The position numbers and the translations under genes were made by a program. From positions 64,001 through 128,000 of the IMG/VR virus record IMGVR_UViG_3300028591_000094: a DNA stretch of 64,000 nt; one strand, 5' to 3'. Under the pieces are notes generated by a model. It was not told the origin of the DNA. It did not search any database and was given only the letters and a program-made list of their open reading frames with translations. This DNA comes from a virus. Lineage: Duplodnaviria; Caudoviricetes. Below are positions 1 through 63,671 of this stretch, one piece after another (the stretch's first letter is position 1; every line of letters starts with the position of its first letter).

Positions 1-599
1 TTGGTGTATTGATATGGTATGACCCGTTTGAAATCCTTCCACAATCCCCAGTCTCCGCCGTTGTTCCAAAACAGACCGTCGATATCGTAGTGGTGAAATA
101 TGCTATCGTCAATCTGGCTCCAGTTGCGAACCAGTCCAGCACAACTGCCGTATCTTTTGAGTTTCTGGGCATCGCGCGGGTCTTTCACTAGTTTGTCCAC
201 CTGTTGCTCAAAGGACAGACTGCCGTGAGCCATTTTTGCCAAATCGTTTGTGAATGTGGCTCTGACGCCTTGGTCAATCAAACATCTGTCGAAACCAGGA
301 ACCACTATTTTCATGATAACGTCACCGTAACTTGAAGCCATACCAGGGTCTAATTCCCCTTCCAGGGTGGTTGTACAATACAAACCAAACCCATAGACAT
401 GCGCCCCGTTGCTTCCGATGAACTCCCTGGATACACCAGTTTTCTTTATTGCGTCAATGTTGCGGCTCCACGTCCTGGAATATATTACGAACGATTTATT
501 GTCTTTTGCGAATCCATGTAAATCGTCAAGGGTGTTGATTCCTTCAATATATTCTTCAACACCCTCGTTGATTATCCTATTGCAACTGTCTGGAAACAT
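1..599 (-). CDS. Partial ORF (runs off the window) with an ADP-ribosyltransferase-like fold; absent from the ORF track
   Basis: Hand translation from ATG at 599 is open to position 1: MFPDSCNRIINEGV...FVIYSRTWSRNIDAIKKTGVSREFIGSNGAHVYGFGLYCTTTL...SSYGDVIMK. This resembles the ART pattern Y[H/R]xT..I..G...G.G.Y.T. Confidence 0.6.
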   Translation of the reverse strand, partial: MFPDSCNRIINEGVEEYIEGINTLDDLHGFAKDNKSFVIYSRTWSRNIDAIKKTGVSREFIGSNGAHVYGFGLYCTTTLEGELDPGMASSYGDVIMKIVVPGFDRCLIDQGVRATFTNDLAKMAHGSLSFEQQVDKLVKDPRDAQKLKRYGSCAGLVRNWSQIDDSIFHHYDIDGLFWNNGGDWGLWKDFKRVIPYQYT

Positions 600-611
600 T
601 CGTTTGAAACT

Positions 612-2822
612 TTAGATGAGTTTGTTTATTCTTTCAAAAAGGTTGAAGAACCGTTCGTTAGTTGACTTGCGATACGACTCCTGCAGGCTGGTACGGTCGT
701 AATCCTCTGGGAAAATCACGTCAACTGGTTCCACAGCGTCACCTGAACGGGCGATAGCCATTTGACTTTCACCCCAAGGTTTGTAGTCAATCATGTCTGG
801 AATTCTAATTTCGGCAACTATGATTGTACCACCATATTTAGGAGCCAATTCCTTGGCGTGTTCCAGTGTGGTGCAGAAATATACACCAGGACCGTGGAGG
901 GCGTTGTTGTTGTCGGCTATGTGGAAACCGTTGGACATAACCTTTTCGGCTGTCTGTGGCGGGCAGCATGTGTACAGACGGTTGTCAAACTCGCCTTCCT
1001 GCGCCACGTTGTTCTCAAAGTCGTTGTTTTCGTGGGCTATGCCGTCATTATCATCGTCGTTGAACCAGTTGTCAGCCGATTCGTTTATAGCCGACGTGCC
1101 ATTACCCATACGTTCAGTATCCACGTCGCTCATTCCCAGCATGTCGAACACGCTGTCTATGTATGACTCGAACTGAGGCGAGCCGTTTTCCATTGTTCTG
1201 TTCATATTATTGTCTGATGTTGATTCATAAGTACCGTGAGGCAGATACGATTCGCTTATGGCGCGGTATCCGCTCGGAATGTTATTATACGGGCTAGCCG
1301 CTTTGCCCTGTTTGTCCTTTACAACGTTTCCCTGATAGGGGTGGGCGTCCAGTTTACGCTGAAACGCGCTGTCTGGCAATTGACCTTGATATTTGTCGTA
1401 GATGTACTTTTTCAGTTCACCAGACAAATGATTGTAAATTGTACGTGTAGCCATGGCGTTTGCAATGAGTTCGTCGAGGTTCAAGCCCTGGCACTGACTG
1501 ATAGCCCGCTCGTTGTCTATACGGTGTCTACCGACATACATTCCAGCCACCCATTTCTTGATATGGTTCGGAGTGTCACCTTCCTTCTTGGCATATTCCT
1601 TCATCTGGGGAAAGGTATCGATATAGTTCAGCAGCATGCCGAATATCTGCGACTTAATCACATTGATGTTGGGATTGCCATCCTCATCTGTTGGAATTGT
1701 GAAATCACTGAGACCTAGGAAAATGTGCAGTGTTTTATACACAGCCAAGATGTAGCTCAAATCCTCGTTGCCCATTGCGGCGAGCACTTTCTTGCGGTTC
1801 TCGGCGTTAGCCTCGTCGTCACCGTTTATTTCACCTTGAGAAAATGCTGTGGGTTTGATTTCAAATCCAGTGTTGTCAACCACACCGCGTCTCTCGGCGC
1901 TGTTCCATAAATCCTTGCGACCAGGGATTACAACCGTGTCGCTGATATCATAGTAAGCGTACCACTTGTACATGCTTGTATTGCCTTTCTTCTGGCGCAG
2001 CAAATCAATCTCAGCCTTGTTGTTCTGGTCTCTGTATCTGCCAGCATCGGCACCTGGGTCGGATGCTCTCTGTTTGGCGCGCATCTGTCTCATTGCGGCA
2101 ACCACCTCTGGGTCGTCGCGTCTTCCGCCGTCCATGGGTACTTTGTAGTAAATTGGATATTGGTGTTCCCAGTTCACTTCCCTGTTGTACTTGGACTCCC
2201 ATTCCTGCGGCGACAATATATAAGTTGCCTCGGGGAAACCAGCTTCCACACGGCGTTTGTTCTGTTGTCTAATGTAATCGATATTAGCATCGCTTAAAAC
2301 ATATGTCAAATTCTTGTTGGTTGACAGGGGAATGTGCATTTTCTGCAGACTTTCGAGAGCCTCGGGGCCCCAGTTCTGGATGTAGTTAATCCAGTCGGCG
2401 AGGTCGTCTTTCATAATCTGACTTTCCTTTTCGCCGCTAATACGGTTGTCGGCAAAAGGCTTGGCGACTCTTAGAATGTCACTGGCTGAAATTTTACCAA
2501 ACTTGGGGTCATTCATTGAATTTATAACACCCACAAGTTTCTGGATATCATGGGAAGCCACTGAGTTCGGGTCAGACAGTTCGTTTGCGGCAACCTTCAT
2601 GTAGAGGAGGTTGGAGTTGGTAACAGCCTTGGGTAAAACTTCCTTTATCTTGGCTAGCTGGTCTGGTGAGAAAAGGCTGTGTTTCTTTTTATCGGCGTCC
2701 TCCTCGTGGGCTGATATGGTCAGGTACCCCCTACTCTGGCTGGGGGATATTGTCAAAGGGGTGCCTGAAATTCTGGCACTATCCTCATTCAGAGTACTTT
2801 GGATTCTGTAATTATTGCTCAT
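612..2822 (-). CDS. 736-aa multidomain protein: ArdC-N-like central domain and C-terminal ART-like domain; probable head-internal protein
   Basis: ArdC-N-like: YVLSDANIDYIRQQN..PEATYILSPQEW..YNREV..YYDISDT. ART-like: LYTCCPPQTAEKVMSNGF..LHGPGVYFCTT..AK..YGGTII. TATTTAT lies upstream. Confidence 0.55.
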   Translation of the reverse strand: MSNNYRIQSTLNEDSARISGTPLTISPSQSRGYLTISAHEEDADKKKHSLFSPDQLAKIKEVLPKAVTNSNLLYMKVAANELSDPNSVASHDIQKLVGVINSMNDPKFGKISASDILRVAKPFADNRISGEKESQIMKDDLADWINYIQNWGPEALESLQKMHIPLSTNKNLTYVLSDANIDYIRQQNKRRVEAGFPEATYILSPQEWESKYNREVNWEHQYPIYYKVPMDGGRRDDPEVVAAMRQMRAKQRASDPGADAGRYRDQNNKAEIDLLRQKKGNTSMYKWYAYYDISDTVVIPGRKDLWNSAERRGVVDNTGFEIKPTAFSQGEINGDDEANAENRKKVLAAMGNEDLSYILAVYKTLHIFLGLSDFTIPTDEDGNPNINVIKSQIFGMLLNYIDTFPQMKEYAKKEGDTPNHIKKWVAGMYVGRHRIDNERAISQCQGLNLDELIANAMATRTIYNHLSGELKKYIYDKYQGQLPDSAFQRKLDAHPYQGNVVKDKQGKAASPYNNIPSGYRAISESYLPHGTYESTSDNNMNRTMENGSPQFESYIDSVFDMLGMSDVDTERMGNGTSAINESADNWFNDDDNDGIAHENNDFENNVAQEGEFDNRLYTCCPPQTAEKVMSNGFHIADNNNALHGPGVYFCTTLEHAKELAPKYGGTIIVAEIRIPDMIDYKPWGESQMAIARSGDAVEPVDVIFPEDYDRTSLQESYRKSTNERFFNLFERINKLI

Positions 2823-2852
2823 TTTACTAATTCTAATTGTAGTTTATATTAT

Positions 2853-2859
2853 ATAAATA
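2853..2859 (-). promoter_or_regulatory. TATTTAT putative late promoter
   Basis: Recurring motif upstream of structural and head-type genes. Confidence 0.6.
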
Positions 2860-2864
2860 TAATT

Positions 2865-2901
2865 AAAAAAGAAAAGCAACCGTTGGTTGGTCGCTTTTCT
2901 T
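2865..2901. terminator. Intrinsic terminator hairpin
   Basis: AAGAAAAGCAACC / GGTCGCTTTTCTT stem with adjacent A tract. Confidence 0.6.
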
Positions 2902-2923
2902 GTATTCAGCAGGAGGGATGGCG

Positions 2924-3268
2924 TCATTTTTTGTTTGAATTGTTGTCGCCTGTTCCAGGGCTGCTAGCCACATACCCTGCCGATGTGGTTGTTGTGTATA
3001 TATTCCATCGCTGAAACCATTGATTGATTGGACAGTTGAAACAATCGTGGTTTGGGTTGGTACAAGTTCCATCCAAACTCAAGAAGCACCTTTCATACCC
3101 CCACCACGGTACTGACGTCGGTGATGCTGGAGGTTGTTCCGTTGTATTCGCTTCTTCCTCCTTTAAAGCCAACAGCTCAGCCAGAGTCTGTTTCGATAGC
3201 TTCATGTACTTTTCAACTTTTTTGTGGAAGCCATCGGACGTTGTCTTTAAGTTCTCATTGTTGTTCAC
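2924..3268 (-). CDS. Hypothetical protein with a Cys cluster
   Basis: 114-aa ORF containing CFLSLDGTCTNPNHDCFNCP. Confidence 0.6.
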   Translation of the reverse strand: MNNNENLKTTSDGFHKKVEKYMKLSKQTLAELLALKEEEANTTEQPPASPTSVPWWGYERCFLSLDGTCTNPNHDCFNCPINQWFQRWNIYTTTTSAGYVASSPGTGDNNSNKK

Positions 3269-3288
3269 AATATTTAAGTTTAACTCAA

Positions 3289-4440
3289 TTATTTACAGTA
3301 GATTTTGCGGCTAAGCAACTGACCAATACGTGAATCATAAACTTCATAATACTGGCAAGGTTCCTCGCAAGAAAACCCATTGGATAGTGCAAAAGTATTG
3401 TACCCTATGATGGAGCCGTTTACAACAGCATTTGGGATTGAAACACATTGATGGAAATGTCCAATATAGATTTTATCCTGCCCAAACACTTTACCCCATT
3501 TAAGGGCTAAACGGTTGAGAGCGGGGTATATACCACACACTGTACCGTTACCGCCGCCACGAATCTGGAAACCGTGGGCGAAGATAAACTTCTGTCCATC
3601 GGGGGTGTTTACAACAGCGACTTCCGATTCTGGGATACAAAATTCAATCGGCAGACCGTCATTCTTGCACTGTTGCTCGATGTTCTTGTACATAAGCCAC
3701 TCGTAGCTCATCTTGAAACCGTTGGCGTGCTGAATCTTCTTGGTTGTACGACTGTGGTTGCCGACGATACCGATAAATTTGATTGAATTAAGGTCGGTGG
3801 TCTCGCAGATGTATTTTAGTCCATTGTAAATCAAACTCTGGGCTTTGAGTGTTGCTTCTAAGGGTGAAAGACCGTTGCACTGAGTCAATTCATCATGCAG
3901 GAACCCTGTTATACTATCGCCGAGTGACGCGAAAATGAGGTCATCAACCTCGTCAACCTTAATGCACTCACAGAGATTCTCAAAATATTTTTGAATGCGC
4001 TTTTCAGCAATTTCAATGTTATACTCATTCATATTGAGAACTGAGGCTGGATTAACAGTTTCCTCAATATGCGCATCCGAGAACAGGGCGACAGCATAGC
4101 GAGAGCCAGGTTTCTTTGGGGTGTACTTGAAGTTATAGGTCGTGAAGCCCAAGTTTTGGACATCCTTCATCTTTTTGAACTGTTTAAAATCTTGTTCATC
4201 CTCCTTGGACATAGTCTCTGTTACGGGAGCGTCGGCTTGTTTCACCACTGGACGGGTGTTGACGGCATAATAAGTCATACCGTTAAATTTGAAATAACCG
4301 TCCTGTTTCAGTTTCTTACCGATTGTCGCGTGGTCAACACCGATAACGGCTTCCAATTGTCTAAGACTGTCATACGTTTTTCCGTTTTCATCAACCAGCT
4401 TGTTTGAGCGGCTGGGGTAAAGTTCAAATTTGTTTTTCAT
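3289..4440 (-). CDS. Calcineurin-like metallophosphoesterase with N-terminal HTH-like region
   Basis: Motifs SDAH, LGDS, GNH, AHG, GHFH. Confidence 0.85.
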   Translation of the reverse strand: MKNKFELYPSRSNKLVDENGKTYDSLRQLEAVIGVDHATIGKKLKQDGYFKFNGMTYYAVNTRPVVKQADAPVTETMSKEDEQDFKQFKKMKDVQNLGFTTYNFKYTPKKPGSRYAVALFSDAHIEETVNPASVLNMNEYNIEIAEKRIQKYFENLCECIKVDEVDDLIFASLGDSITGFLHDELTQCNGLSPLEATLKAQSLIYNGLKYICETTDLNSIKFIGIVGNHSRTTKKIQHANGFKMSYEWLMYKNIEQQCKNDGLPIEFCIPESEVAVVNTPDGQKFIFAHGFQIRGGGNGTVCGIYPALNRLALKWGKVFGQDKIYIGHFHQCVSIPNAVVNGSIIGYNTFALSNGFSCEEPCQYYEVYDSRIGQLLSRKIYCK

Positions 4441-4480
4441 GTAACTTTGTTTTCGTTAAACTTTTATTGACTTTCTTTTC

Positions 4481-4492
4481 TACTAATATACG
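4481..4492 (-). promoter_or_regulatory. CGTATATTAGTA putative early/middle promoter
   Basis: Recurring 12-mer upstream of non-structural genes. Confidence 0.65.
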
Positions 4493-4513
4493 ACTTTTTT
4501 ATCAATAAGCCAG

Positions 4514-4553
4514 AAAATGAGCAACTTTTTTTGTTAAGTTGCTCATAAAAAAA
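4514..4553. terminator. Hairpin, likely terminator
   Basis: ATGAGCAACTT / AAGTTGCTCAT perfect 11-bp stem. Confidence 0.5.
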
Positions 4554-4570
4554 CCTGGTTATTTGTACGG

Positions 4571-6136: not shown

Positions 6137-6157
6137 AATTTATCTAATTTTTTAGCG

Positions 6158-6358
6158 TTAGAATTTGGTGTTTTTGAAAAAGATGACCGCCAGTCCGAGT
6201 AGAAACAGTATGCTGCAAGCCATCGGTATCCAGGCTGGTGCCAAAACCCACAGCCATGACCAGGTTATGACCTTGCATAGTTTAAGAACTATAAAAGCCA
6301 CCAGCAGCAGTGTCGGTAAACCTCCGACGGTGACTGAAATTTTCTTTTTGTCGCTCAT
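6158..6358 (-). CDS. Small two-TM membrane protein
   Basis: LLLVAFIVLKLCKVITWSWLWVLAPAWI, a common phage membrane peptide pattern. Confidence 0.75.
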   Translation of the reverse strand: MSDKKKISVTVGGLPTLLLVAFIVLKLCKVITWSWLWVLAPAWIPMACSILFLLGLAVIFFKNTKF

Positions 6359-6387
6359 TGTTTTTGCGTAATGTTTGTTTTTATTGA

Positions 6388-8010: not shown

Positions 8011-8015
8011 GTTAT

Positions 8016-8027: not shown

Positions 8028-8050
8028 AAAAATTTGTATCATATTAAACA

Positions 8051-13253: not shown

Positions 13254-13754
13254 ATGAACATAAAGAGTTATATATCGAAATTGGTGAACGAATGTATTCA
13301 CGCAAATCAGGAGGAGAATCTCCGCGAAAGCATACGCCCGATGGTAGCCAAAGCCCTCATGGAATCAATGTATGAAAAAAAGGATGACAACAAGAAGGAT
13401 GAGGATGAAATTGAAGCGACTGTCGAAAAACTTATGCAAGACCCCGAATTCAAGGAGAAAGCTATTGAGTATCTTGATGACGAAGACGCTTTCAAGAGCT
13501 GGAGCGATTCGTTTGACAAGAAAACCTATGATAAACTCGACAATATGTCTGACGGTGCCAAGCGCAGAATCATATCCCAGTTGCTCCAAGACGAGAAAAT
13601 CAATCACGCTCCAATAGCATATGCCCTCTGGCCTAGTATGTCTGAGGATGCCGCCCGTTCATGGTTTGCCAAGAAAGTGAACGGTACTAACGGCGAGGAA
13701 TTTACTGACGAAGAATACGCTCAGATATACAACCTATTACACAACAGACTTTAA
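13254..13754 (+). CDS. Probable head-internal protein
   Basis: N-terminal VNE/LRES/LMES sites; own promoter and terminator. Confidence 0.65.
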   Translation: MNIKSYISKLVNECIHANQEENLRESIRPMVAKALMESMYEKKDDNKKDEDEIEATVEKLMQDPEFKEKAIEYLDDEDAFKSWSDSFDKKTYDKLDNMSDGAKRRIISQLLQDEKINHAPIAYALWPSMSEDAARSWFAKKVNGTNGEEFTDEEYAQIYNLLHNRL

Positions 13755-16874: not shown

Positions 16875-17286
16875 TTAATATCTTCTCGTAGAAAATTATA
16901 TGCTGTTTATGTGTCAACGGTTTAAGTTCCTCCCATGACATCCATCTATACTGGTCGATTTCGGGTGTTACCCCGTTTGGGCATAAATTAGAGTGGCATT
17001 CGGCTGGATTTATGTCCTCGACTTTCACGCCGAACGCACCAACGTTTTTCTTAGGGTTCTGTTTCACCTGTCCTAAATAGACCATTGCATTTTTATATGC
17101 TGTTAGGTCGACACCGCTCTCCTCCCTGAACTCACGCAACGCTGTCTCGAGGTCATTCTCATCACCCTCAGTACCGCCTTTCAGCAAAGCCCAATAGTTG
17201 TCACGGCACCCGCCTGGATGCCCGACAAAAAACAGGAGTTGCCTATTTACTTCTTTATACGGTATAATACCAACTGATTTTTTCAT
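16861..17286 (-). CDS. Nudix hydrolase
   Basis: Nudix box GGTEGDENDLETALREFREESGV; HPGG..W; PEID..W. Confidence 0.9.
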   Translation of the reverse strand: MKKSVGIIPYKEVNRQLLFFVGHPGGCRDNYWALLKGGTEGDENDLETALREFREESGVDLTAYKNAMVYLGQVKQNPKKNVGAFGVKVEDINPAECHSNLCPNGVTPEIDQYRWMSWEELKPLTHKQHIIFYEKILNGNY

Positions 17287-18365
17287 TATTTGAAATTTTT
17301 GCTGTTTTTTAACTCTTTCAACGTTTTCTTTTCATCCTCTGACAGTGTTTTCGGCATAATCTGGTTAACGTACACCAGCATATCCCCATTACGATAACCG
17401 TTCGACAAGCCTTTACCCTTAACAACCACTCGTGAATTCTCCTTGGAACCCTGCGGAATTGTTATTTTCACCTTGGTGCCATCGAGACACGAAACCTCTT
17501 TTTCACACCCCAGGATGCAGTCTATGATATTTACGTTTGTCTTGCAGTAAATGTCAAAGTTGTTGTTGCTGATACCGAAAACGCTGTGTTGCTTGACACG
17601 GAACACAACAATCAGGTCGCCGCATTCGCCCATTCCGTTAGGGGCTTCATTTCCTTTACCCTCCAACACCGTGTAACTGTTATCTCTGGCTGTTGGTGGA
17701 ATTTGTATTGTTACCGTCTCGGATATCTGCACTAGACCGCTACCATGACAATCAGGGCATGGGTCTGTATTTACGGTACCCGTTCCATGGCATGTTGTGC
17801 AGGGCATTCTCTCTATCTGTGTGAAGGCTCCATTTGTGTAGCTTCTTGTACGGACACCTGTTCCGTGACAGTCGGGACATGTCTGGACATTGCCAGACCT
17901 GCTGCCACTGCCGTTGCACTCGGAACACTTGCCCATTCGCTTGTATCTGATGGTTTTCGTTGCGCCGTTGTAGATGTCCTCCAGCGTACACTCCAACGCT
18001 ATCCTGCAGTTGGTACCCTTTGCCACTCTTTGGAAATTCTCTTCTCCGAAACCAGCGAACATATTCTCGTGCATCCGACGGAACATTTCCATCAGGTCGT
18101 TATTGCTGGCGCCCTCGAAACCACCCATGCCTTCTATCGTACCGTATGTGTCGTAGTGCTTGCGCTTTTCAGCATCACTCAGCACCTGGTAGGCTTCGTT
18201 GATGTCCTTAAACTTTTCCTCAGCCTGTTTCTTCTCCTCGTCAGACTTGTCGGTCTGTTTGTCTGGATGGTACTGGGCCGCTAGTTTGCGAAATGCTTTC
18301 TTGATTTCTGCATCCGACGCGCCCTGCGCCACACCTAAGATTGAATAATAGTCTTTGTTTGCCAT
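17286..18365 (-). CDS. dnaJ: Chaperone DnaJ (class A)
   Basis: J domain with HPD, four CxxCxGxG repeats, C-terminal domain. Confidence 0.97.
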
Positions 18366-18378
18366 GTTGTTTAAGAAA

Positions 18379-18400
18379 GGGGGAGAGTGTGCCCTCCCCC
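18379..18400. other. GC-rich hairpin between dnaK and dnaJ (attenuator or stabiliser)
   Basis: GGGGGAG / CTCCCCC stem. Confidence 0.55.
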
Positions 18401-18410
18401 GTCGCTTGCA

Positions 18411-20303
18411 TTAATTGTTTGATTTCTTCCCATTAAACATATTCCCGAACTGGTTCATGAAGTCCGCCCCGTTCGCCGACTGAGCACCTCCCTGTCCGTA
18501 TGCCTTGGCGCTGATGCTGTACATACGTTCCTGGACTTCCTTCTCAACCGATTCGAAATTGTCGAAAGATTTTTCCTCTTTCATTTTCTTTATTTCCTCT
18601 TTCTTGTTTTCAAAGAATGTCTTATCATCCTCCGTCACCACATCGGACTTGTCTTTCAACCCGTCAACCAATTGGTCTATTCCGTAAATCAACCCCTCGC
18701 ATTTGTTTGCAATTTCCAGGTCTTTCTGAGTCTTGGCGTCCTCATCGGCATGCGCCTGGGCATCGGCTTTCATGCGCTCGATTTCATCTTCACTCAAGCC
18801 AGACTTGGCTTCAATACGGATGTTATGGGACTTACCTGTTGCTTTGTCAAGTGCACTTACACTCAAAATACCATTGGCATCAATGTCGAATGATACTTCA
18901 ATTTGGGGCACCCCGCGTTTGGCTGGCATTATACCCTCAAGGTTGAACATACCGATTGTCTTGTTGTCGTTTGCCATCGGGCGGCATCCCTGCAAGACGC
19001 GGATTGTTACTTCGGGCTGATTGTCCACCGCCGTGGTAAAAATCTGACTCTTCTTGGTTGGAATGGTTGTGTTGGCTTCAATGAGCGTCGTCATTACACC
19101 GCCCTCGGTCTCGATACCCAAGTTCAAGGGGGTTACATCGAGCAGTAACACGTCGTTGACTTCACCGCTCAACACACCGCCCTGGATAGCGGCACCGATT
19201 GCAACTACCTCGTCTGGATTTACACCCTTGGATGGTGTTTTTCCGAAGAACTGTTCAACAACATTCTGAACCGCAGGGATACGAGTCGAGCCGCCTACAA
19301 GTATCACTTCGTCAATGTCACCATTACTCAACCCCGCATCTGACATAGCTTTCTTGCAGGGCTCCAGTGTTGCCTTGATAAGTTTGTCGCAAATCTGTTC
19401 GAACTTGGCTCGTGTCAGTTTCTTTACAAGGTGTTGTGGAACACCATCTAGAACTGTAATATAAGGTAGATTGATTTCCGTTTCAATTGTTGACGAAAGC
19501 TCAATTTTAGCCTTTTCAGCAGCCTCTTTCAAACGCTGCATTGCCATTGGGTCTTTCTTCAAGTCGATTGACGTGTCATTCTTGAATTCGTCAGCGAGCC
19601 AGTTAATGATTTCCTGGTCAAAATCGTCGCCCCCAAGATGTGTGTCACCGTTAGTTGACAGAACCTCGAACACACCGTCACCGAGGGATAATATAGAAAT
19701 GTCAAACGTACCACCACCGAGGTCAAATACGGCGACATTCATGTCCTTATCAGTCTTGTCAAGACCATAGGCAAGTGCCGCAGCGGTCGGTTCGTTTACA
19801 ATACGCAAGACGTTCAATCCAGCAATCTCGCCAGCCTCCTTGGTTGCTTGGCGCTGAGAGTCACTGAAATAAGCAGGTACTGTGATGACGGCGTCCTTTA
19901 CTTCCTCACCAAGATAATCCTCTGCAGTTTTCTTCATTTTCTGTAAGATTATTGCAGAAATTTCCTGGGGGGTGTAGACTTTTCCATCGATGTCGACGCG
20001 CGCCGAATTATTGTCACCCTTGACAACTTTGTACGACATGTTCTCAATCTCCTTGGTTACCGCATCGAACGGTTCGCCCATGAAGCGCTTGATTGATGAA
20101 ACGGTGTTCTTGGGGTTTGTCACAGCCTGACGCTTGGCTGGGTCACCCACCTTGCGCTCTCCGCTGCTGATAAAGCCCACTACCGAAGGGGTCGTCCTAC
20201 GACCCTCGTTGTTTGCAATGACCACAGGGTCTTTTCCTTCCATGACCGCAACGCACGAATTTGTCGTTCCTAGGTCAATTCCAATTACTTTACTCATTTT
20301 CAT
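18411..20303 (-). CDS. dnaK: Chaperone DnaK (Hsp70)
   Basis: [37 protein letters not shown]. Confidence 0.99.
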
Positions 20304-25193: not shown

Positions 25194-25400
25194 AAAATTT
25201 CTCCAGTGAACTACACCGAAACTAAAGATTTCGGTGCTTCTGACTTCCTTGACAGTTGCGTTCCGAAGAATGTCTTACACCGTCTCCATCAGTGTAATCG
25301 ACCGTCCCAGCCGATATATTTCTTAATCCTTCTTTAAGAATGTTTTTTGCGGCATTGATGTCTCTGTTATGTATTGTTCCGCATTGAGGGCATATCCATT
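25186..25400 (-). ncRNA. Predicted omegaRNA (reRNA) over the tnpB 3' end and right end; 5' boundary approximate
   Basis: Established IS605 architecture; the guide would be the flank TGGAGAAATTTTTGTATATT. Confidence 0.55.
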
Positions 25401-26409
25401 CCCTAACCGACAAATCTTTCACTTTGCCGTTAACATAACCGCATTCATTACAAGTCTGACTTGAAGGATAGAACCTATCTATCTTCACTATCTGTTTATT
25501 GTTCAAGTCAGCCTTGTATTGAAGATATGTTACAAAAGTACCCCAACTTGCGTCTTGAATATGCTTAGCCAACTTATGATTCTTAACCATACCCTTAATG
25601 TTTAGGTCTTCAAGACAAATTATGTCATATTTCCTAATCAAATCGGTTGATACTTTATGTAGATTATCATTACGGGAATTAGCAATCATTTCTTGAAGCT
25701 TGGCAACCTTGAGTCTTTGTTTTTCGTACTCATTACTACCATATTGCTTTCTTGAAAGGTGTTTTTGAGCAATTGCTAACTTTCGTTGATATTTCTTTGT
25801 ATATCTATTATTTTTATATGTTTTTCCATCAGATGTTATTACGAAATCCTTTAAACCAAGGTCAATACCAACTTGTTTGTTTGATTTTGGTAAAGGCTCA
25901 TACATTTGTTCAGTCAACAAACTGACATAATACTTACCAGTAGTTGTAAGTGATATTGTTGCTGAGTTAATCTTACCTTCAACTTGGCGATGCTGTCTGA
26001 CCTTGATACCTTCCTTGAATTTCGGAAAGTACACCTTGCCGTCTTTCAATTCAACAAACTGAGGAACTGAAAAACTGTTTCTGCTCTTTTTGCTTTTGAA
26101 ATTAGGGAATTTGGCATTGCCTCTGAAAAAATTAACATAAGCTGTTTCAAGATGCCTTAATGTATGTTGAAGTGTCTGACTGTTGATTTCTTTCAACCAA
26201 AGATGCTCACCATCTTTTTTCAGTTCAGTTAATTTCTTTGCTTGTTCATAATAATTATCTGATTTATACGTTTCATCATACTGACGTTTCCGTTCAGATA
26301 AGAAATAGTTGTATACAAACCTAACAGACCCAAAATGTTTTGCCAACAAAACTTTTTGTTCCGCATTTGGCTCAAGTCTGAATTTATATGTTTTATACAC
26401 AACCTTCAT
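25222..26409 (-). CDS. tnpB: RNA-guided endonuclease TnpB
   Basis: RuvC triad GIDLG / LEDL / NRDINAA; Zn finger CNECG..CPQCG; N-terminal YKFRLEP..Q. Confidence 0.97.
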
Positions 26410-27729: not shown

Positions 27730-28581
27730 TTATTGCAGATGGCTTCTGAAATCGCGTATGCTTTCCGACATGTCGCCACACCCGTTACGGTCAACTTTCT
27801 TATTGTCGTCGCTGTAGCTGTAGTCGGCGAGCTTGCGCATTTTCTCCAACTCTTCGTTGATGGCTGTTTTGTTGAATTTGTTAACAACTTCCATGTGGAT
27901 GTACCCGAACGGGTCTGTTGTGCATTCAACCAGGTAGTCCGTACCTGTCTTGTCTCGCATATAAAATTTGTTTTCGTCAATCTTGTAATCCTCTGGAACC
28001 TTTGCAAGCACCTGCGACTCGTTAAGGAATGTAGTGTTTTTGAACACAAGTCTCTTAGTGGGTTTGCTTTCGTTCACTTTCTTGAAAGCTGTGTTCGGCT
28101 CATAGTCCTTGCCCTTACGCTCCATTTCCCTGGCTTTCAGACCTGTCGAGGCTTCCATTTCTCTGTTGTCAGCCATCACTTTGTTGGTCTTTGCCCTCTG
28201 GTCGAAGAATTTCTTGTTTCCCTCGGTGTCGTGGTATTCTGCAAGGTCGTTGTGCTCCATGTTGTATTTTGACGGATACCCGCAGGCTTGTGCATACCAC
28301 CTCTCCTTAGTCTCCTTTGGAACCTCTGTTTCGAAATACGCGTCCATCGGCGTCTTGTTGTAGTCGATATAATGCGTGTCTTTCGGTTTGCGTGGCTGTT
28401 CATTGCGACCTTCCTTGTCATACTCTTCAGCGTTCTTACGAATGTCTTCAACAGCCTTTTCGTTCTCGTTACTACCACGTTTCGCACCGTTGCCGAATTT
28501 AGGTTTAAATTCGTTCTTGGGTGTGCTTGCCTCGCTTAATTGTAGCAACTCTCCTACTGTATAGTGCTCTTCGAGTTTCAT
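27730..28581 (-). CDS. Probable head-internal/core protein
   Basis: LSEA, VNES, LNES, INEE, MSES sites; highly charged. Confidence 0.6.
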   Translation of the reverse strand: MKLEEHYTVGELLQLSEASTPKNEFKPKFGNGAKRGSNENEKAVEDIRKNAEEYDKEGRNEQPRKPKDTHYIDYNKTPMDAYFETEVPKETKERWYAQACGYPSKYNMEHNDLAEYHDTEGNKKFFDQRAKTNKVMADNREMEASTGLKAREMERKGKDYEPNTAFKKVNESKPTKRLVFKNTTFLNESQVLAKVPEDYKIDENKFYMRDKTGTDYLVECTTDPFGYIHMEVVNKFNKTAINEELEKMRKLADYSYSDDNKKVDRNGCGDMSESIRDFRSHLQ

Positions 28582-28838: not shown

Positions 28839-30557
28839 TTATTTTTTACTAGTTTTGTGTCCTGGAAACTTGACAGTTCCGAAATATTTACCACATTTGC
28901 TACATTTGTATATCGGTTCTCCGCAGATGTAGGTTCCAACCTTGGCGCCGCATTCCGTACAGTTTTCAGGTACTACTTCACCTTCGTCATTCCTCACAAC
29001 TTTTCTCTTTTTCTTGCCTTCACTCACATTGCTGTGACCCACTCTATCGTGCATACCACAGGTATCACCAGGAGTTCTGTCGGCTGTCTCGGCATCAATG
29101 AAGGCTGGGGCGTCGAACTCACCAGGTAAACCACCTGTCCCAGAAGCGGTTGCTTCGTTCACCGACTTACCTTTCGGTCGGAAACTTTTCACAAAATTGC
29201 GACAAGACCAAGCCCATTCATAATCGTCCACTTTGGACAATGGAATCCATCTGAATTTGCTGTTTTCGCCGTCGCCCTCGGATGGTTTATAATCACTGGT
29301 TTTACCTGGAAGATAAATCTTGAAGTTGATACCCCAATCCTCTTTGCTGGCTAACACCAAATCTTTCTTGTTTAATTTAATTCCCGATTCCTCCTCACAC
29401 TCTCTGACAGCACCATCCTCTGGCGATTCATATTTATGCCTATGACCCATCGGGGGGTTCATCTTACCACCCTCATCGTCCCAGTCCTTGTTTCTTTTCG
29501 CTGCCAAAACACACCATTCGCCATCATTATTCTTGGCATACAGATACACCGCCGATGATTTTCTGCCATCTTCACCAGTTACAGCTTCATTCAGACCACC
29601 GCCAAACGCCGTCCTAATTGTTTCCTTGACTGTTTTCGTAGAAAGTAGGTAGTCCATCTCAACCGTACTGTACACCCGAGTCATTGTGCCATTATTAAGC
29701 TGCACTTGTTTTGGCATATATCCTAACAAAGCTTTGAACTTCGGGTCGAAAATATCGTGGAGATAAGACAAATCACTTTTTTTAATGTCTGTACCACACT
29801 TCTTGTTTATCTGACCGAGGTATCTGCCGAGAGGGGCATGCGACTGACCATTGAGATAAATGTGACCATAAGCCTCTCTCAACGTATAAGGGTCACCGCC
29901 AACTTTACGTTTTGTACTATGAGAACTCCCCCCTAAAGGCTGGATAAACTCACCACTTCCGAAACCGTTTCCATCAACACCAGAACAACTGGTAGCGCCC
30001 CCTCCATCCTCATCTAGCTGTTTTTCTTTTACCTTTGCATTAAGTGCTTCCGCAGCGTCGTCAAAAAACTTGCCCATGCCATATTTGGGATTAGCTTTGG
30101 TATGAACGCCGCCGCTTATCACACCCATTGTCAGGGGTGACGATTTGATTGCACGTAACTGGTCTTGGTAAGGGTCGTGTTCAAACAACCCCTCGTTTAT
30201 TTTACCCTCCGTCTCAGGAAAAAGCGCATCGTACAATGAATCCAGTTTCTCGTTAAACCCATCCTTCGGCACACTGTATTTGACAATCATTTTTGCTGTA
30301 TGGGGGTTGCCGTCCTGGTCATGGTCGCTTATTGTCATTTTCTTGGTGATAACCTTGCCATCCTCCAGTGACTTGATGAGTTTGTTTTTGTCCAAACCGT
30401 GATGTGTGAATATAATGTCAGGCTCCGTACCAACGGGGTCTTCCAGTAAAGACGCCAGGAACTTTTTGATATTCGCCTTGAATTTGAACTGGGTCATAGC
30501 CAGCATATCCTGTATGGCGTCGGCTTGCGATTCGTTGATTATGATAGTTCTAGCCAT
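28839..30557 (-). CDS. Modular protein with an internal Nudix hydrolase and C-terminal Zn ribbon; probable processed head protein
   Basis: Nudix box GHRHKYESPEDGAVRECEEESGI; CTEC..CSKC; start placed at MARTIIINESQ. Confidence 0.75.
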   Translation of the reverse strand: MARTIIINESQADAIQDMLAMTQFKFKANIKKFLASLLEDPVGTEPDIIFTHHGLDKNKLIKSLEDGKVITKKMTISDHDQDGNPHTAKMIVKYSVPKDGFNEKLDSLYDALFPETEGKINEGLFEHDPYQDQLRAIKSSPLTMGVISGGVHTKANPKYGMGKFFDDAAEALNAKVKEKQLDEDGGGATSCSGVDGNGFGSGEFIQPLGGSSHSTKRKVGGDPYTLREAYGHIYLNGQSHAPLGRYLGQINKKCGTDIKKSDLSYLHDIFDPKFKALLGYMPKQVQLNNGTMTRVYSTVEMDYLLSTKTVKETIRTAFGGGLNEAVTGEDGRKSSAVYLYAKNNDGEWCVLAAKRNKDWDDEGGKMNPPMGHRHKYESPEDGAVRECEEESGIKLNKKDLVLASKEDWGINFKIYLPGKTSDYKPSEGDGENSKFRWIPLSKVDDYEWAWSCRNFVKSFRPKGKSVNEATASGTGGLPGEFDAPAFIDAETADRTPGDTCGMHDRVGHSNVSEGKKKRKVVRNDEGEVVPENCTECGAKVGTYICGEPIYKCSKCGKYFGTVKFPGHKTSKK

Positions 30558-30562: not shown

Positions 30563-30817
30563 TTACTTCTTTTTTAACATTGTCGTCCAGAATGACTTCT
30601 TCGCCCACATGTTTTCAATAAACTCCTTGAAAGCGTCAACCACTATATTATGAACCCTTTTCTGAAACTCCCTGCTTTTCGTGTAAGCCTCAATTTCATC
30701 TTCAACCTGTCCCCTGGTCATATCCTCGTTGATATAACTGCTACGCAAACACTCTTTGAAAGCCTCCATTACAAGGTTCTCAATCTCTTTATCTGTTAGT
30801 TTAACGAATTTCTTCAT
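30563..30817 (-). CDS. Small protein with MKKFVKLTDKE leader
   Basis: Start reassigned to follow TATTTAT (30839-30845). Confidence 0.7.
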   Translation of the reverse strand: MKKFVKLTDKEIENLVMEAFKECLRSSYINEDMTRGQVEDEIEAYTKSREFQKRVHNIVVDAFKEFIENMWAKKSFWTTMLKKK

Positions 30818-30857
30818 GCTTAGATATAATATATATTTATAAATAGTTAAACACAAG

Positions 30858-30914: not shown

Positions 30915-31568
30915 CTAGTCCAGGTCGTCACCTGCTATCACACGGCGGGTTGTTTCAACAATGTCGTCGCCGCGTCTGAGTTTGCGTTCCATCATCGGCT
31001 GCTGACCCCCCATGTCTCCACCAGCTGGAGGTGCTGCCTGTGAAGCATCCGCCTGTTGCTGAGTATCGACGTTCTTGGCTGCCTGATTTACATCACCCTG
31101 ATTGTTTTTTACCATGTCGTTAGGGTCTTGATAATTCGACGGCTTGCAGTCTTCCGATTTGGAGATTTCGTCGCGCCAGTTCTTGCATACACCGTTTACT
31201 TTCTGTAATATTTGTATGGTTTTGTCAGATATTGGAAGATATGGGTTTGACCACACATAACATCCAGCACCGTCGCCAACCTTGTATCTGAACTGAAACT
31301 TGGCGTCGTTCATCTCGGGGATGATGCCACTCAATGTTATATCTCCGTCGGTTGGGTAATAGAGCATTGGGTTTTTGATGTTGTTGAAATCAGCTCCGAA
31401 CTCCTGTTTGGCTGATGCCAGTACGTTGGTCATAAGAGTATCCTGCTGAGTGTATGGTATAGCATCTGGCTGTTCGGTGTTCTTACTATCCAGCTTGGTT
31501 TCTGGTTGGATTTGTTCCGACTCCCTTAACAATTTGAAAGATTCGTAAATATCACTGTTACGGTTCAT
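30915..31568 (-). CDS. Probable head-internal protein
   Basis: IYES/LRES/MMER/IVET sites; Q/G/P-rich linker. Confidence 0.6.
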   Translation of the reverse strand: MNRNSDIYESFKLLRESEQIQPETKLDSKNTEQPDAIPYTQQDTLMTNVLASAKQEFGADFNNIKNPMLYYPTDGDITLSGIIPEMNDAKFQFRYKVGDGAGCYVWSNPYLPISDKTIQILQKVNGVCKNWRDEISKSEDCKPSNYQDPNDMVKNNQGDVNQAAKNVDTQQQADASQAAPPAGGDMGGQQPMMERKLRRGDDIVETTRRVIAGDDLD

Positions 31569-48035: not shown

Positions 48036-48036
48036 C

Positions 48037-59642: not shown

Positions 59643-59874
59643 TAATCCTCTTTAAAATTTTGCTTATATTGATACCGTGTCCAGTTACGAGACAATACAC
59701 GGCGTAGCACACCAGAAAAGGTATACATATAATAAGTAGAGCTGTCAATAAAATTACAATGAAAAACTTTGAGATAAAGTTAGCCGCCAACTGCACTCCG
59801 CGCCGCTCCTCGGTAGCCTCTCCGTCGGCGTATTTCTCGGCTTTCTTAGCCTGTTCTTTACATTTGCATCCCAT
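59626..59874 (-). CDS. Small membrane protein with N-terminal CxC
   Basis: MGCKCKEQ plus a long TM segment. Confidence 0.7.
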   Translation of the reverse strand: MGCKCKEQAKKAEKYADGEATEERRGVQLAANFISKFFIVILLTALLIICIPFLVCYAVYCLVTGHGINISKILKRINGKKQ

Positions 59875-59923
59875 TTTTGTATAGTATTTTTATTATAATA
59901 TATACATATTTAGGAAAATAAAC

Positions 59924-59951
59924 AAAGGGAGACGACTTTAACCATCTCCCT
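59924..59951 (-). terminator. Probable terminator
   Basis: AGGGAGA / TCTCCCT stem. Confidence 0.5.
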
Positions 59952-59979
59952 CGATATTTGTAAGACTATGTTCGGAACA

Positions 59980-60777
59980 TTATTCCTGTGTCTGGTTCCA
60001 GTTTACTTGACCGCCTGTGCTTGTACTGGCGTTCTGCGACCAGCCTTGGTTGGGCTGAGCCTGTTTATTCTGAGGGGTCTGCTGGTGTGCCTGCTGTTGC
60101 TGAGTTTGTTGCTGGGGCTGTTGGTTTTGCTGACCCTGTTGACCACCCTGTTGGTTCTGTCCACCCATGAGACCTCCAATAATATTTTTACCTGTCTGGA
60201 GAATGTTTCCAAAGGGGTTACCGCCTTGCTGACCGTTACCGCCTTGCTGACCGTTACCGCCAAGCAATCCACCGAGGACGTTGCCAATTCCACCACCGTT
60301 GGAACCGCCGCCCAAGCTACCGATGCCAAGCAGTTGACCAATCATTGACGGGTTAAGGTTTCCGAGTATGCCACCGAGCATGCCTTCATCGATACTTTCG
60401 TTCATAGCACCGTTCATACCGCCGCCCTGTGCAGCCTGTTTCTTTAGTTTAATACTGTTCTGAATTTCGTTACCAAGTGCCATTGCAAACAGTTTCGACG
60501 TAAGAACTCTGTACAAAACACCGTTCTTGTCGAGTTTGAGCAGATTAGCAATCAAATCGACAGCCTTTTTAATCAGTCCGCTGCCAAGTAAACCACCAAT
60601 CATACCGAGACCGCCTTCGTCAACCTCTTCGTTGAGACCGTTGCAGGCAGCGCCGCATTCATTGGTTCCACACTCGTTGGTGCCGCATTCAGCCATTGAT
60701 TCGTTCATAATACGTATGACCGATTCGCTGATTAAGCTATGTAATTCCTTTTCAGTTAGTTTAACAACTTTTTTCAT
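59980..60777 (-). CDS. Gly/Gln-rich protein with MKKVVKLTEKEL leader
   Basis: Multiple xxE sites, glycine-zipper segments, Q-rich tail; TATTTAT at 60802-60808. Confidence 0.75.
   Translation of the reverse strand: MKKVVKLTEKELHSLISESVIRIMNESMAECGTNECGTNECGAACNGLNEEVDEGGLGMIGGLLGSGLIKKAVDLIANLLKLDKNGVLYRVLTSKLFAMALGNEIQNSIKLKKQAAQGGGMNGAMNESIDEGMLGGILGNLNPSMIGQLLGIGSLGGGSNGGGIGNVLGGLLGGNGQQGGNGQQGGNPFGNILQTGKNIIGGLMGGQNQQGGQQGQQNQQPQQQTQQQQAHQQTPQNKQAQPNQGWSQNASTSTGGQVNWNQTQE
60217..60261. repeat. 18-bp tandem repeat x2.5 (GGNGQQ)
   Basis: GTTACCGCCTTGCTGACC repeated. Confidence 0.85.
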
Positions 60778-60832
60778 TCTTTATGCAATTGTTTTATTAT
60801 TATAAATATAAATATCATTTTGTTTGAAATTG

Positions 60833-62872
60833 TTATCTCTGTTTTACTCTTACACGAATGTCCTTCTCGGGATACTTGATTTCAAACATGGTGTCGATTG
60901 TTCCATACAGGGTCTTGTCACTGTCAAACAAGTCAATCTCGTTTTCATCAGTCTGTCCGCCAAGTGCATTGTAGTGCATCATGTCAGCACATGATTCATA
61001 ATCCACAAGCGACTGGTTAATTTCATCATCGGAATATCCGTCATCGGCACCGACTTTATTATAACAACGCAAGGCAATCATATTTACAACTCCGTCGAGT
61101 TTGGAAATCTCTTTCTCCAAGTCACCAAGGAAAATATCCTCACCCATCAAATGTTTTCTGATGTCCATATAGTCCTGGATAAGCTGTATGATGCGCTGAA
61201 TCACCTCGCTTTTGTCATAAGCTTTGTCGATATAGACGTTGCAGTCGAATGCCAGGTTGATTATCTTTCCAGAACGTATCTCAACAAAGTCGTTAACACA
61301 CTTGTATTCTTTCAGGTATTCCTTCATGTTATCAGCTACCGTTTCGGACAGCGGTGATGAAAGTTTACCCTGATAATCCAGACCTAGAGTGTAGATTACA
61401 ACCTTGTTGTTCTCTTCCACAACACTATATCTAAACGGAGTTCCATATTTCGGATGGATTTGGGACAGCTTACTGTAGTAATCCTTTAAAGTAACGCATC
61501 TGTTTTGCGCAGCTGAATTGTATTTAATTAAATACTTGATTTCCTCATCGGTCGGAGCATCTTTACCTCCATATGACGCTGTTGGGTTGGTGACTGTCAA
61601 GGTGTTCTTCACACTGGCTTTTTTCTTGGCGTCGTTAGGGTCGTTGCAATTACCCTCTATACTCATATTAAGATATGATATGGTTGACAGTGTGTCGGCA
61701 CCGATATTGGAGATTTCACCACCGCCAACGTGATAAAGAACAAACACTGTAGTTCCAGCCTCGGGCAAAACACCCATATAGTCGTTGGCTTCCATACGGC
61801 TCATCATGTATCTGGTAAACTCAGTAGCATCACCAGGTATTTCACCATAATAATTACGAAGTCCAGCGCCGAATATAATCTTAAGTTTTCCTGTGTCGGT
61901 AAATTCTGTTATAAATTTGTTTTTCAAACGTTTCCATTCACCTTGCATTGCGAACCTGATATCTTCGGTCTGTGGGTCACCGTTGTCGTCGATATATTCA
62001 AACGAGTCAATTGCCGTCCATACTGGGTTGTAATAACCGTTGTCTGTATTTTCGTCAACAACATATCCGAAACGATACTGGTCAACGAGGTTGACAACCT
62101 CAAAGTATCTCTGAACGGGCTTACCAGCCTGGTCTTTATACGACTCCAAATCAACATAGAACTCAGCGATTGTCGGGTCGTTGGAGAGACTGGTACCCTG
62201 TTTAACCAATATACTTTCAACGTTACAGATGTCCGAGTCGGTTAAAGTTATCGACATGAACGGTTCAATATCGGCGTTGCTGATAGTTTTACGATATATC
62301 TTGTTATGACCCGCCCGTGCAATACCAAGCTTTTTGTATGTGTAGTTGATAATATTGCCGTTACTGTCCCTGTTGGGAATAATCTGTCGATTTGATATTC
62401 CGTTTTCATCAAACTGGGTGGCAAAATCCATGTCAGCTGTAAGTTCGAAAGTATTTGCTCCATCAGAAAACAAAGTACCGCGTTTCACTTTAGGGCAATA
62501 ACTTTCATCAGGTATTGAAATGGTATTTCCCATGTTGTTTACAGCACTGGTATTCATAGGGATATTGCACGATAATTCAACCTCTACTATAGCACACTTC
62601 GCACCGTCGATTTTTAACCCGTTGGTTCTTGCTATATTCAACAGCGCACCACGGGAAGTACAACTGTCGATGTCGGTTTCCTGATAGTTTCTGTCAATCG
62701 CATTGCTCAGAACATCCGCAACGTCAGCCTGTATGTCAATCAGCCATTGACCGATGCCAGCGTCGTTGTAATTCTGGAATATGTCAGGATAATATTTCTG
62801 ACTTATATCAATCAAGTCGCTTCGAAAATCATCGTAAGTCCTGTCGAGGTATATTAACTTGTTGTCTGCCAT
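60833..62872 (-). CDS. Baseplate wedge subunit (T4 gp6/baseplate J-like)
   Basis: Y..RTYDD.R.DL; IIFG.G; GG.D....EEIK...AQNRCVTLKDY. Confidence 0.85.
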   Translation of the reverse strand: MADNKLIYLDRTYDDFRSDLIDISQKYYPDIFQNYNDAGIGQWLIDIQADVADVLSNAIDRNYQETDIDSCTSRGALLNIARTNGLKIDGAKCAIVEVELSCNIPMNTSAVNNMGNTISIPDESYCPKVKRGTLFSDGANTFELTADMDFATQFDENGISNRQIIPNRDSNGNIINYTYKKLGIARAGHNKIYRKTISNADIEPFMSITLTDSDICNVESILVKQGTSLSNDPTIAEFYVDLESYKDQAGKPVQRYFEVVNLVDQYRFGYVVDENTDNGYYNPVWTAIDSFEYIDDNGDPQTEDIRFAMQGEWKRLKNKFITEFTDTGKLKIIFGAGLRNYYGEIPGDATEFTRYMMSRMEANDYMGVLPEAGTTVFVLYHVGGGEISNIGADTLSTISYLNMSIEGNCNDPNDAKKKASVKNTLTVTNPTASYGGKDAPTDEEIKYLIKYNSAAQNRCVTLKDYYSKLSQIHPKYGTPFRYSVVEENNKVVIYTLGLDYQGKLSSPLSETVADNMKEYLKEYKCVNDFVEIRSGKIINLAFDCNVYIDKAYDKSEVIQRIIQLIQDYMDIRKHLMGEDIFLGDLEKEISKLDGVVNMIALRCYNKVGADDGYSDDEINQSLVDYESCADMMHYNALGGQTDENEIDLFDSDKTLYGTIDTMFEIKYPEKDIRVRVKQR

Positions 62873-62878
62873 TTAAGT

Positions 62879-63265
62879 TTATATTGTTTGTGATAATTCA
62901 TAATTATGTCTCTCACCATCCTTCTCCAATAATGAATATTGTAGCTTTACATTCAATCCCCTGTTGTCGTCAAACTCCTCAACCTCAACATTGTCAACCT
63001 CACAGTTGGAAACGTATTTCCTCACCTTCTCCTTTACCTCCAACACAACATCATCCCAAGTCTGCTGGTCGTTCGGTTCAAAAAGATATTGGATTAGCTT
63101 GGTTCCAAACAACGGGTCTCTCAACTTCTGCCCCTCTGGAGTGAAAATGAGATGAACCAGCTGGGATTTAACCTCGTCAGCTCGGGTCATATTCATATCC
63201 AGGAGATATTTACCGCTTTTTATCTGACACGGGAACGCTATGCCGAATTTCTGTGTTCTAGCCAT
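62879..63265 (-). CDS. Baseplate/sheath-initiator gp25-like protein
   Basis: GIAFP..VKSQL.HLIFTPEGQKLRDPLFGTKL..YLFEP. Confidence 0.9.
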   Translation of the reverse strand: MARTQKFGIAFPCQIKSGKYLLDMNMTRADEVKSQLVHLIFTPEGQKLRDPLFGTKLIQYLFEPNDQQTWDDVVLEVKEKVRKYVSNCEVDNVEVEEFDDNRGLNVKLQYSLLEKDGERHNYELSQTI

Positions 63266-63284
63266 TGTTTAATTGTTTATGTGT

Positions 63285-63671
63285 TTAATCTGCAACACAG
63301 TTATCAACCAGGTTGTTCCAACTCTGCATAACACCCTTTACATAATGGTTGAAATTAGCGTTGTTACATTGGTTTGCCGCCTGTAACAGAGCTGTCTTAA
63401 ATTGTTGTGCCGCTTGTTCCATATTACAGTTCGCCATTGCCTCGGATACGTTTACACGTTCCTCTTGTGATAGTCCGTTACCAGTGTTAGGTGTGTTGGC
63501 AGTATTTTCGCTATTGCTGTTATTACTATTGCTGGTTGGCTGTACATTGCTCGGAGCGACCGCTGTCGAATGAAGCAGTTTCAGGAATCCCTCGTTGAGT
63601 TTCTGTTCCTCTAAAGCCTTCGTAATAATGCGGCGTATATCCTGTTCGGTTAAATGTATAACTTTTTTCAT
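63285..63671 (-). CDS. Small protein with MKKVIHLTEQDI leader
   Basis: Leader followed by LNEG; TATTTAT at 63691-63697. Confidence 0.75.
   Translation of the reverse strand: MKKVIHLTEQDIRRIITKALEEQKLNEGFLKLLHSTAVAPSNVQPTSNSNNSNSENTANTPNTGNGLSQEERVNVSEAMANCNMEQAAQQFKTALLQAANQCNNANFNHYVKGVMQSWNNLVDNCVAD

Follow-up and report, generated by a model that had tools for sequence, protein, structure and literature searches.

Three genes in the window analysed here, the 64,000 nucleotides from base 64001 to base 128000 of one 168,082-bp IMG/VR record (IMGVR_UViG_3300028591_000094), encode proteins that begin with versions of one leader peptide. This leader is a genuine module of 26 residues, widespread and not described to date: a profile search, exhaustive over 1.84 billion cluster representatives, placed it at the start of or inside the proteins of at least 2,263 clusters (50% identity) at E ≤ 1e-3, and the sequence after it is unrelated among these clusters. 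There is about an even chance that it represents a capsid-targeting and cleavage tag in the style of phage T4, belonging to a clade of jumbo phages with T4-type heads and extended to the joints of polyproteins. A second proposal is put forward more tentatively, namely that a clade of 280-410-kb gut/rumen jumbo phages uses the 26-residue cassette as an address plus triple protease site, by which a large and fast-changing set of proteins and polyproteins would be loaded and cut in the capsid. The cargoes in that proposal span thousands of clusters and include methylase, lysozyme, ART-like and Gly-zipper proteins.

The three leaders of the window (Table 1), all starting with MKK, are 29-44% identical in pairwise comparison over 36 aa. 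A preliminary description of this DNA had called them near-identical and had counted them among at least nine scattered late open reading frames (ORFs) as one system. The nine ORFs and the peptides quoted from them are indeed present in the sequence and the three MKK starts are related, but near-identity does not apply, and the leader stands on only three of the nine. A profile of the three MKK leaders reveals a fourth copy outside the window (genome 32529-33200, plus strand) and a weak fifth (genome 162748-163005). When the profile is built from foreign leaders only and run against 2,937 six-frame ORFs, four leaders are recovered (E 3.7e-12, and the three values in Table 1), and the fifth scores E 0.079. 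The same codon is used at only about half of the identical leader residues. Since synonymous codons differ between the leaders, selection acts on the peptide and not on the DNA, and a DNA- or RNA-level element or recent recombination is thereby ruled out as the source of the common start. The orthologue of the 84-aa leader protein in the relative G001 keeps [IL]NE, followed by DMTR.

The consensus of 209 units reads M-K-K-x-I-R-L-T-E-S-D-L-H-R-I-[IV]-K-E-S-V-[KN]-R-[IV]-L-[NKR]-E, i.e. a basic start with a short strand (KKxIRL) and one amphipathic helix, capped by LTESDL and ending in [IV]-L-x-E. Position 24 (P3) is L/I/M/V in 90% of the units and position 26 (P1) is Glu in 85%, with no conservation from position 27 (P1') onward. 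Besides L24-x-E26, two inner matches to the same pattern are nested in the leader, L7-T8-E9/S10 and [IV]16-K17-E18/S19 (a slash denotes the bond after Glu). The best 150 of the leader-matching proteins contain 234 units, 131 of them N-terminal and 103 internal. A given cargo module can follow leaders that stand at different points of different proteins. Upstream of internal units, xNES or xDES together with basic residues is frequent; ES lies ≤11 residues upstream in 44% of cases, compared with 19% of random windows. Neither Pfam nor PHROG has a family for the leader, a word-based search with this region gave no match, and the string LTESDL has no occurrence in the literature searched.

It is extremely improbable that the leader forms the beginning (strand plus first helix) of a DNA-binding domain of the ribbon-helix-helix type, with the tagged proteins being small regulators. 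The stretch KKxIRLTESDLxxI does look like the opening of CopG/Arc-type proteins (strand and start of helix A), and weak matches were obtained to Omega_Repress (E 0.02), DUF6290 (0.03) and a PHROG annotated as 'DNA binding protein' (0.055). However, nothing is conserved past Glu26 and a common helix B is therefore missing, ribbon-helix-helix proteins are absent among the matches of the profile to all PDB sequences at E ≤ 10, the cargoes include Gly-rich, acidic, methylase and lysozyme sequences, and internal tandem copies are unsuited to such a fold. On testing, this reading was consequently found to be unsupported.

The record is classed as linear and ~45% complete, and most of its genes lie on the minus strand. 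Its genes include those for a tail sheath, a gp6-like baseplate wedge, a terminase, DnaK, a DnaJ-like protein and many for replication, and it is a fragment of a jumbo myovirus with a T4-type head; the source phage is giant, uncultured and from gut or rumen. Among the relatives identified via the baseplate gene are records 245-339 kb long, of which one has terminal repeats and is complete. The leader pattern is met mostly in rumen Prevotellaceae assemblies. In IMG/VR, a degenerate DNA pattern of the leader matched 59 stretches, and 31 contigs were examined further. These are 11-100% complete (CheckV), the complete or nearly complete ones measuring 317-413 kb. The phage DnaK (630 aa; region of window 17286-20303) shares ~60% identity with DnaK proteins from bacteria and from huge Prevotella-associated phages, the latter being the closest.

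Head genes of gp20, gp21 and gp23 type are encoded by large relatives. PF03420 (Peptidase_S77, the family of T4 gp21) is found in four of the five close baseplate relatives and in three of the four leader-bearing genomes that are ≥90% complete. For G001, the matches are to PF07230 for the portal (1e-69), to PF03420 for the protease (3e-23; L093:14952-15698, minus strand) and to T4 gp23 structures for the capsid protein (1e-25); the capsid proteins of G001 and G002 display LLRE/A and LIYE/A, respectively, just before the block aligned to residue 28 of mature gp23. The large relatives have 9-15 leader ORFs each, and a leader ORF directly adjoins the protease gene in G001, G002, G011, G028 and G035. 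The gene order in G001 is portal, 311-aa helical protein, 132-aa leader protein, 143-aa protein, 117-aa leader protein and protease, with the last two in one TATTTAT-headed unit. The interval between portal and protease, with its two leader ORFs, thus corresponds to the place of T4 genes 67 and 68. Conserved hNE[SGA] or hNE/K sites (h, hydrophobic) are present in the relatives' scaffold, in the 311-aa core protein and at the protease C-terminus. Co-folding of the G001 protease, scaffold residues 1-75 and 395-562 and a 45-aa leader gave a score of 0.01 (mark 0.32), a result that is neutral on binding. Among the tagged proteins of G001 are an EcoRI-type adenine methyltransferase (E 1e-90) with a leader-like N-terminus (L116:2654-3649, minus strand) and a protein in which a leader-like N-terminus is followed by a membrane segment and a phage lysozyme domain (E 1e-6; L093:3110-3916, plus strand).

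These neighbourhoods also bear on the idea that the leader serves as the recognition sequence of a dedicated modifying enzyme, akin to a maturase of ribosomally synthesized and post-translationally modified peptides (RiPPs). A radical-SAM-like gene (genome 34186-35028, CxxxCxxC) does lie ~1 kb from one leader gene, but the five leader genes of this genome have no common neighbour, no recurrent enzyme is seen on the short foreign leader contigs (few neighbourhoods examined), and the prohead protease is the only recurrent neighbour found. Such an enzyme is accordingly given very little probability.

Expression of the tagged genes appears to follow that of the head. TATTTAT lies 15-53 nt upstream of ~30 of the ~180 genes here, sheath, tube and baseplate genes among them, and in G001 it precedes the capsid, scaffold and core genes. 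It is found upstream of 5/5, 10/14 and 9/13 leader genes in three genomes (p 8e-5, 1e-4 and 5e-6; Fisher). A TATTTAT of its own stands before every leader gene of this genome, and in three of the five (30563-30817, 63285-63671 and genome 162748-163005) a hairpin and T-run are located upstream of the motif. The 84-aa leader gene is the first of a unit running from 30817 to 27730. The earlier assignment of all listed ORFs to TATTTAT-headed units holds, as each is either headed directly by the motif or situated downstream within such a unit.

The capsid-targeting sequence (CTS) of T4 is the closest known arrangement with which the leader was compared. It is carried by the internal proteins IPI, IPII, IPIII and Alt, measures 10-19 residues and is removed by the prohead protease gp21, which cleaves after Glu in L/I-x-E; the internal-protein genes are poorly conserved among T4 relatives (PMC9026906). 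Like the CTS, the leader is a portable N-terminal tag on unrelated proteins and ends in hydrophobic-x-Glu, its lineage has gp20-, gp21- and gp23-type head genes, the tagged genes are late, and the cargo genes vary between relatives. A further likeness, to Alt, would be the possibly ART-like 736-aa candidate cargo of the window. Unlike the CTS, the leader contains three nested Glu-Ser motifs and recurs inside proteins at module joints, its tagged genes number 9-15 per genome and thousands of clusters in metagenomes, and it is also found singly in host-type chromosomes; it is known here from sequence alone. The leader probably works like the T4 CTS; judged by its length, no formal alignment with a T4 CTS having been made, it is not a sequence relative of the CTS or a member by descent.

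On the T4-style reading, the tag would, late in infection, bring proteins with nothing else in common into the prohead's scaffolding core, where a gp21-type prohead protease would cut after the last Glu and possibly also after the two inner ones, which fit h-x-E-S. The cut would free the cargo inside the capsid, and exit together with the DNA is conceivable. Internal copies, usually located after xNES or xDES, would be the joints of polyproteins cut in the same manner, and the tagged genes would constitute exchangeable late-promoter cassettes. What stands of the portable address-plus-cleavage code proposed in the preliminary description is the portable N-terminal tag, late-gene expression, an end that obeys the gp21 rule, head genes of T4 type in the lineage and leaders adjacent to the protease; from these we infer core binding, cleavage, packaging and injection or delivery of the tagged proteins.

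The same evidence could be read as a protease-labile linker or propeptide only, with entry into the prohead governed otherwise, or with proteins that are cut but not retained or injected. The three nested h-x-E-S/x matches in the unit, the internal copies at module joints and the recurrence of one cargo module behind different leaders are all in line with this, as is the position of leader ORFs at genes 67/68, where the T4 core proteins are degraded and not delivered (PMC9026906). Still, 26 conserved residues far exceed the need of a three-residue cut site, and the T4 gp21 protease acts inside the prohead (PMC9026906), so that any substrate must enter first. This explanation is therefore judged decidedly improbable.

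Single leader ORFs are also found in bacterial chromosomes. Segatella bryantii DSM 11371 has one of 87 aa (L138:6932-7195, plus strand), Prevotella sp. MA2016 one of 342 aa with an internal unit (L140:5795-6823, minus strand), and three Prevotellaceae metagenome-assembled genomes (MAGs) likewise carry single copies. Those of the cultured Prevotellaceae adjoin an IS1595 transposase or genes of unknown function, in ordinary chromosomal surroundings. These copies could be captured cassettes, or even host decoys riding into assembling proheads.

Several observations weigh against a head-loading tag. PF03420 is absent from both cultured strains and the three MAGs with leader ORFs. The ~45%-complete record itself contains no gp21-type protease, portal or gp23-type capsid gene, and consequently the link from the leader to a T4 head depends on relatives. 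In Megablast and tblastn searches, neither the region nor the tagged proteins had a relative among cultured and deposited phages, and no cultured member was found. G003 and G004 possess the protease together with only 1-2 leaders, and G029 (95% complete) has 9 leaders and no PF03420 match. P1' is small (G/S/A) in only 41% of the 209 units, and 26 residues set the leader apart from the CTS by its described length. The internal copies would be superfluous if one tag per protein suffices for loading, and the tagged protein of G001 with a membrane segment and lysozyme domain could equally be a lysis protein.

Part of this would also suit a portable helix that mediates interaction or oligomerisation, stays uncut and addresses another phage or host complex (chaperone, transcription/translation machinery, another tagged protein), the Glu pattern then being a feature of the helix instead of a series of cut sites. 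Single chromosomal copies in cells devoid of a gp21-type protease, the leaders of G029 and the 103 internal units would all fit, and hydrophobic positions 12/15/16/20/23/24 do form an ordinary amphipathic stripe. Conversely, conservation stops exactly at the Glu of [ILMV]-x-E, xNES/xDES is enriched just upstream of the internal copies, leader ORFs adjoin the protease gene in five genomes, and leader and head genes have a promoter type in common; we also know of no candidate for the partner. An uncut helix thus appears unlikely, albeit worth keeping in view.

Two further groups of systems invite comparison. In phiKZ, 201phi2-1 and SPN3US the reported cleavage motif is S/A/G-x-E, not hydrophobic-N-E. 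Propeptides of the head and ejection proteins of these phages are cut by a gp21-related protease (PMC5694885, PMC7411985, PMC10052503). They resemble the leader lineage in being jumbo myoviruses; a T4-related protease trims many of their head-internal proteins after Glu, and the N-terminal propeptides are thought to target. Their propeptides are, however, not one conserved portable sequence, and they were studied by virion mass spectrometry, whereas the leader lineage has been seen only as sequence. The polyvalent proteins that Iyer et al. (2017; PMC5512222) described from phages and conjugative elements are multi-module effectors among late genes that are predicted to be packaged and injected, and Nudix, lysozyme, methylase and possibly ART modules are encountered in both. 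The study mentions no N-terminal or inter-module tag common to them and proposes fused metallopeptidases for their processing (PMC5512222), whereas in the leader lineage a repeated unit of 26 residues, in agreement with the head-protease rule, links the modules.

If the tag loads the head, the candidates for injection encoded by a large group of uncultured gut/rumen jumbo phages could be identified by a simple profile search, and the tag would be a sequence handle by which the injected arsenal of uncultured phages can be listed. Almost all tagged proteins are without known function, and anti-defence and host-takeover factors are likely to be among them if they are loaded. The leader would also provide a ready-made packaging tag for engineering such phages, and the T4 principle of an address with a Glu-specific cut would have been reinvented with a longer, repeatable module that additionally joins polyproteins.

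Cut-site motifs outside the leader give a more uneven picture. Genome-wide, 40 occurrences of the tight motif [ILVM][NS]E[SGA] compare with 16.5 in shuffles (z 5.6; 2.4-fold), and 167 of the loose motif [ILVM]xE[SGA] with 130 (z 3.6). The comparison of TATTTAT-class with other genes suggested in the preliminary description has a mixed outcome: in this genome the loose motif is no denser in TATTTAT-class genes than in the rest (3.0 vs 3.3 per 1,000 aa), and in the complete relative G002 the late genes have a 3-fold higher density of the tight motif. An N-terminal [ILVM]xE[SGA] is present in 13% of proteins, DnaK and MetK included, compared with 8% of internal windows; being unspecific, a short hxE[SGA] at the N-terminus was dropped as a mark of cargo. 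Clustered sites had been described on all nine listed ORFs. Clustering beyond shuffles is observed in 27730-28581, 28839-30557 and 59980-60777, and marginally in 63285-63671 (the 128-aa protein, tight sites); the remaining ORFs (612-2822, 1-599, 13254, 30563 and 30915) are at or near background. The 265-aa protein has 3 tight sites against 0.16 expected, including an internal MNES site at residue 125, and the 572-aa protein has 5 against 0.18, located at its module borders. The sites of the 283-aa protein (Table 1) are kept in its 58%-identical G001 orthologue, with N/S swaps at P2.

Table 1. Leaders, proteins and promoter-like motifs of the window
Feature	Position	Strand	Details
Leader of 265-aa protein (26-27 residues; MKKVVKLTEKELHSLISESVIRIMNE)	60697..60777	-	leader profile E 1e-15; foreign-only profile E 7e-10
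Leader of 128-aa protein (MKKVIHLTEQDIRRIITKALEEQKLNE)	63588..63671	-	ORF 63285-63671; foreign-only profile E 2.5e-6
Leader of 84-aa protein (MKKFVKLTDKEIENLVMEAFKECLRSSYINE)	30737..30817	-	ORF 30563-30817; foreign-only profile E 4.5e-3
Cargo of 265-aa protein	59980..60696	-	Cys-rich TNECG repeats, GxxxG-rich segments, Q/N-rich tail (translation)
572-aa multi-module protein	28839..30557	-	120-aa N-domain (MARTIIINES...), Nudix at residues 335-454, C-terminal zinc ribbon; no leader
283-aa protein	27730..28581	-	no leader; tight sites LSEA, VNES, LNES, MSES; 4 vs 0.08 expected
736-aa protein	612..2822	-	no leader; candidate ART-like C-terminal domain, residues ~600-720; TATTTAT at -37
717-aa protein, N-terminal 199 aa in window	3..599	-	genome 62446-64599; two copies of one GxGxY domain; no leader
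166-aa acidic helical protein	13254..13754	+	no leader; motif count not above chance; TATTTAT at -27
217-aa protein	30915..31568	-	no leader; motif count not above chance
TATTTAT promoter-like motif	30839..30845	-	28 nt upstream of 84-aa leader gene
TATTTAT motif(s)	60802..60808	-	31-37 nt upstream of 265-aa leader gene
TATTTAT motif(s)	63691..63697	-	26-30 nt upstream of 128-aa leader gene; hairpin and T-run ahead

The framing as nine scattered ORFs, and with it the claim of ART and Nudix proteins as addressed cargo, exceeds the evidence: the ART-like, the Nudix and three other listed proteins are without a leader. The start MARTIIINESQ, taken earlier for a fourth leader, instead opens a separate conserved 120-aa N-domain family (MxKTIIINE...MTQFKFKANIKKFL..LLEDP) that is present as a single copy per genome, and a second portable leader of the form MARTIIINES is ruled out. 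The members of this family measure 197-1424 aa and have very different C-terminal additions (Nudix, WG repeats), and in every genome checked the gene lies within a few kb of several leader ORFs. In the 572-aa protein the Nudix domain matches Pfam NUDIX at 1.6e-10; a search for related loci using this protein gave no match. The sequence [LI]xEAVTG before the Nudix domain is excluded as a cut site, because conservation continues past the Glu.

An ART fold of window proteins is only a lead. It stems from the ESM Atlas, with TM ~0.5 to PARP and Tpt1 models, and from a weak paralogy between the 736-aa protein and the neighbouring 717-aa protein. Two AlphaFold2 models of the domain in the 736-aa protein, from a single sequence and from a 4-row alignment, were too poor for searching (predicted local distance difference test, pLDDT, 36 and 40). 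A 709-aa protein of a relative combines an internal leader with a sub-threshold ART-PolyVal match (E 7e-5). The motif counts of the 736-aa protein and of the window part of the 717-aa protein are at background. Alignment of the 736-aa protein with three homologues reveals a short N-terminal segment ending in L-[NS]-E that is kept, together with two h-x-E-S sites ahead of the last domain.

The 736-aa protein ends (window 612-680) in ...STNE-RFFNLFERINKLI. Prohead proteases of relatives (the end of that of G001 lies at L093:14952-15000) terminate in ...LVNE-KINRINQILL, ...IINE-KINKINQILGI and ...IVTE-KIQRIKQILV. In the 736-aa protein and in the proteases alike, an xNE or xTE site is followed by a short helical tail of similar kind, and the three genomes encode no further protein with such an end. 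Of the T4 head proteins, two, gp21 and Alt, are known to undergo C-terminal trimming (PMC9026906). The protease gene of G002 (L099:2353-4155, plus strand) contains an in-frame insertion of ~350 residues, whose intein-splicing match stays below threshold (E 7e-6); 609-aa protease frames occur likewise in G011 and G036, with the Peptidase_S77 match split around the insertion.

As regards the tagged proteins of the window, the 84-aa one is helical, and the 265-aa one matches no Pfam or PHROG family. The tagged genes flanking gp25/gp6 (59980-60777 and 63285-63671) are without a counterpart there in 19 relatives, and the gene of the 265-aa protein accordingly behaves as an inserted cassette; one relative has other leader genes at the same spot. 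The intervening genes, for a gp25-like, a gp6-like and an 82-aa protein (window 60833-63265; loci L069-L087), form a block conserved in the 19 relatives, with variable genes inserted at the block edges only.

Elsewhere in the window, a 359-aa gene adjoining dnaK (17286-20303) has an N-terminus that is DnaJ-like by eye and is without a named family match. A 395-aa TnpB/IS200-605-type transposase-like gene (phrog_506, E 2e-138) is situated at 25222-26409, and a second, divergent copy of this type lies at genome 46596-48242.

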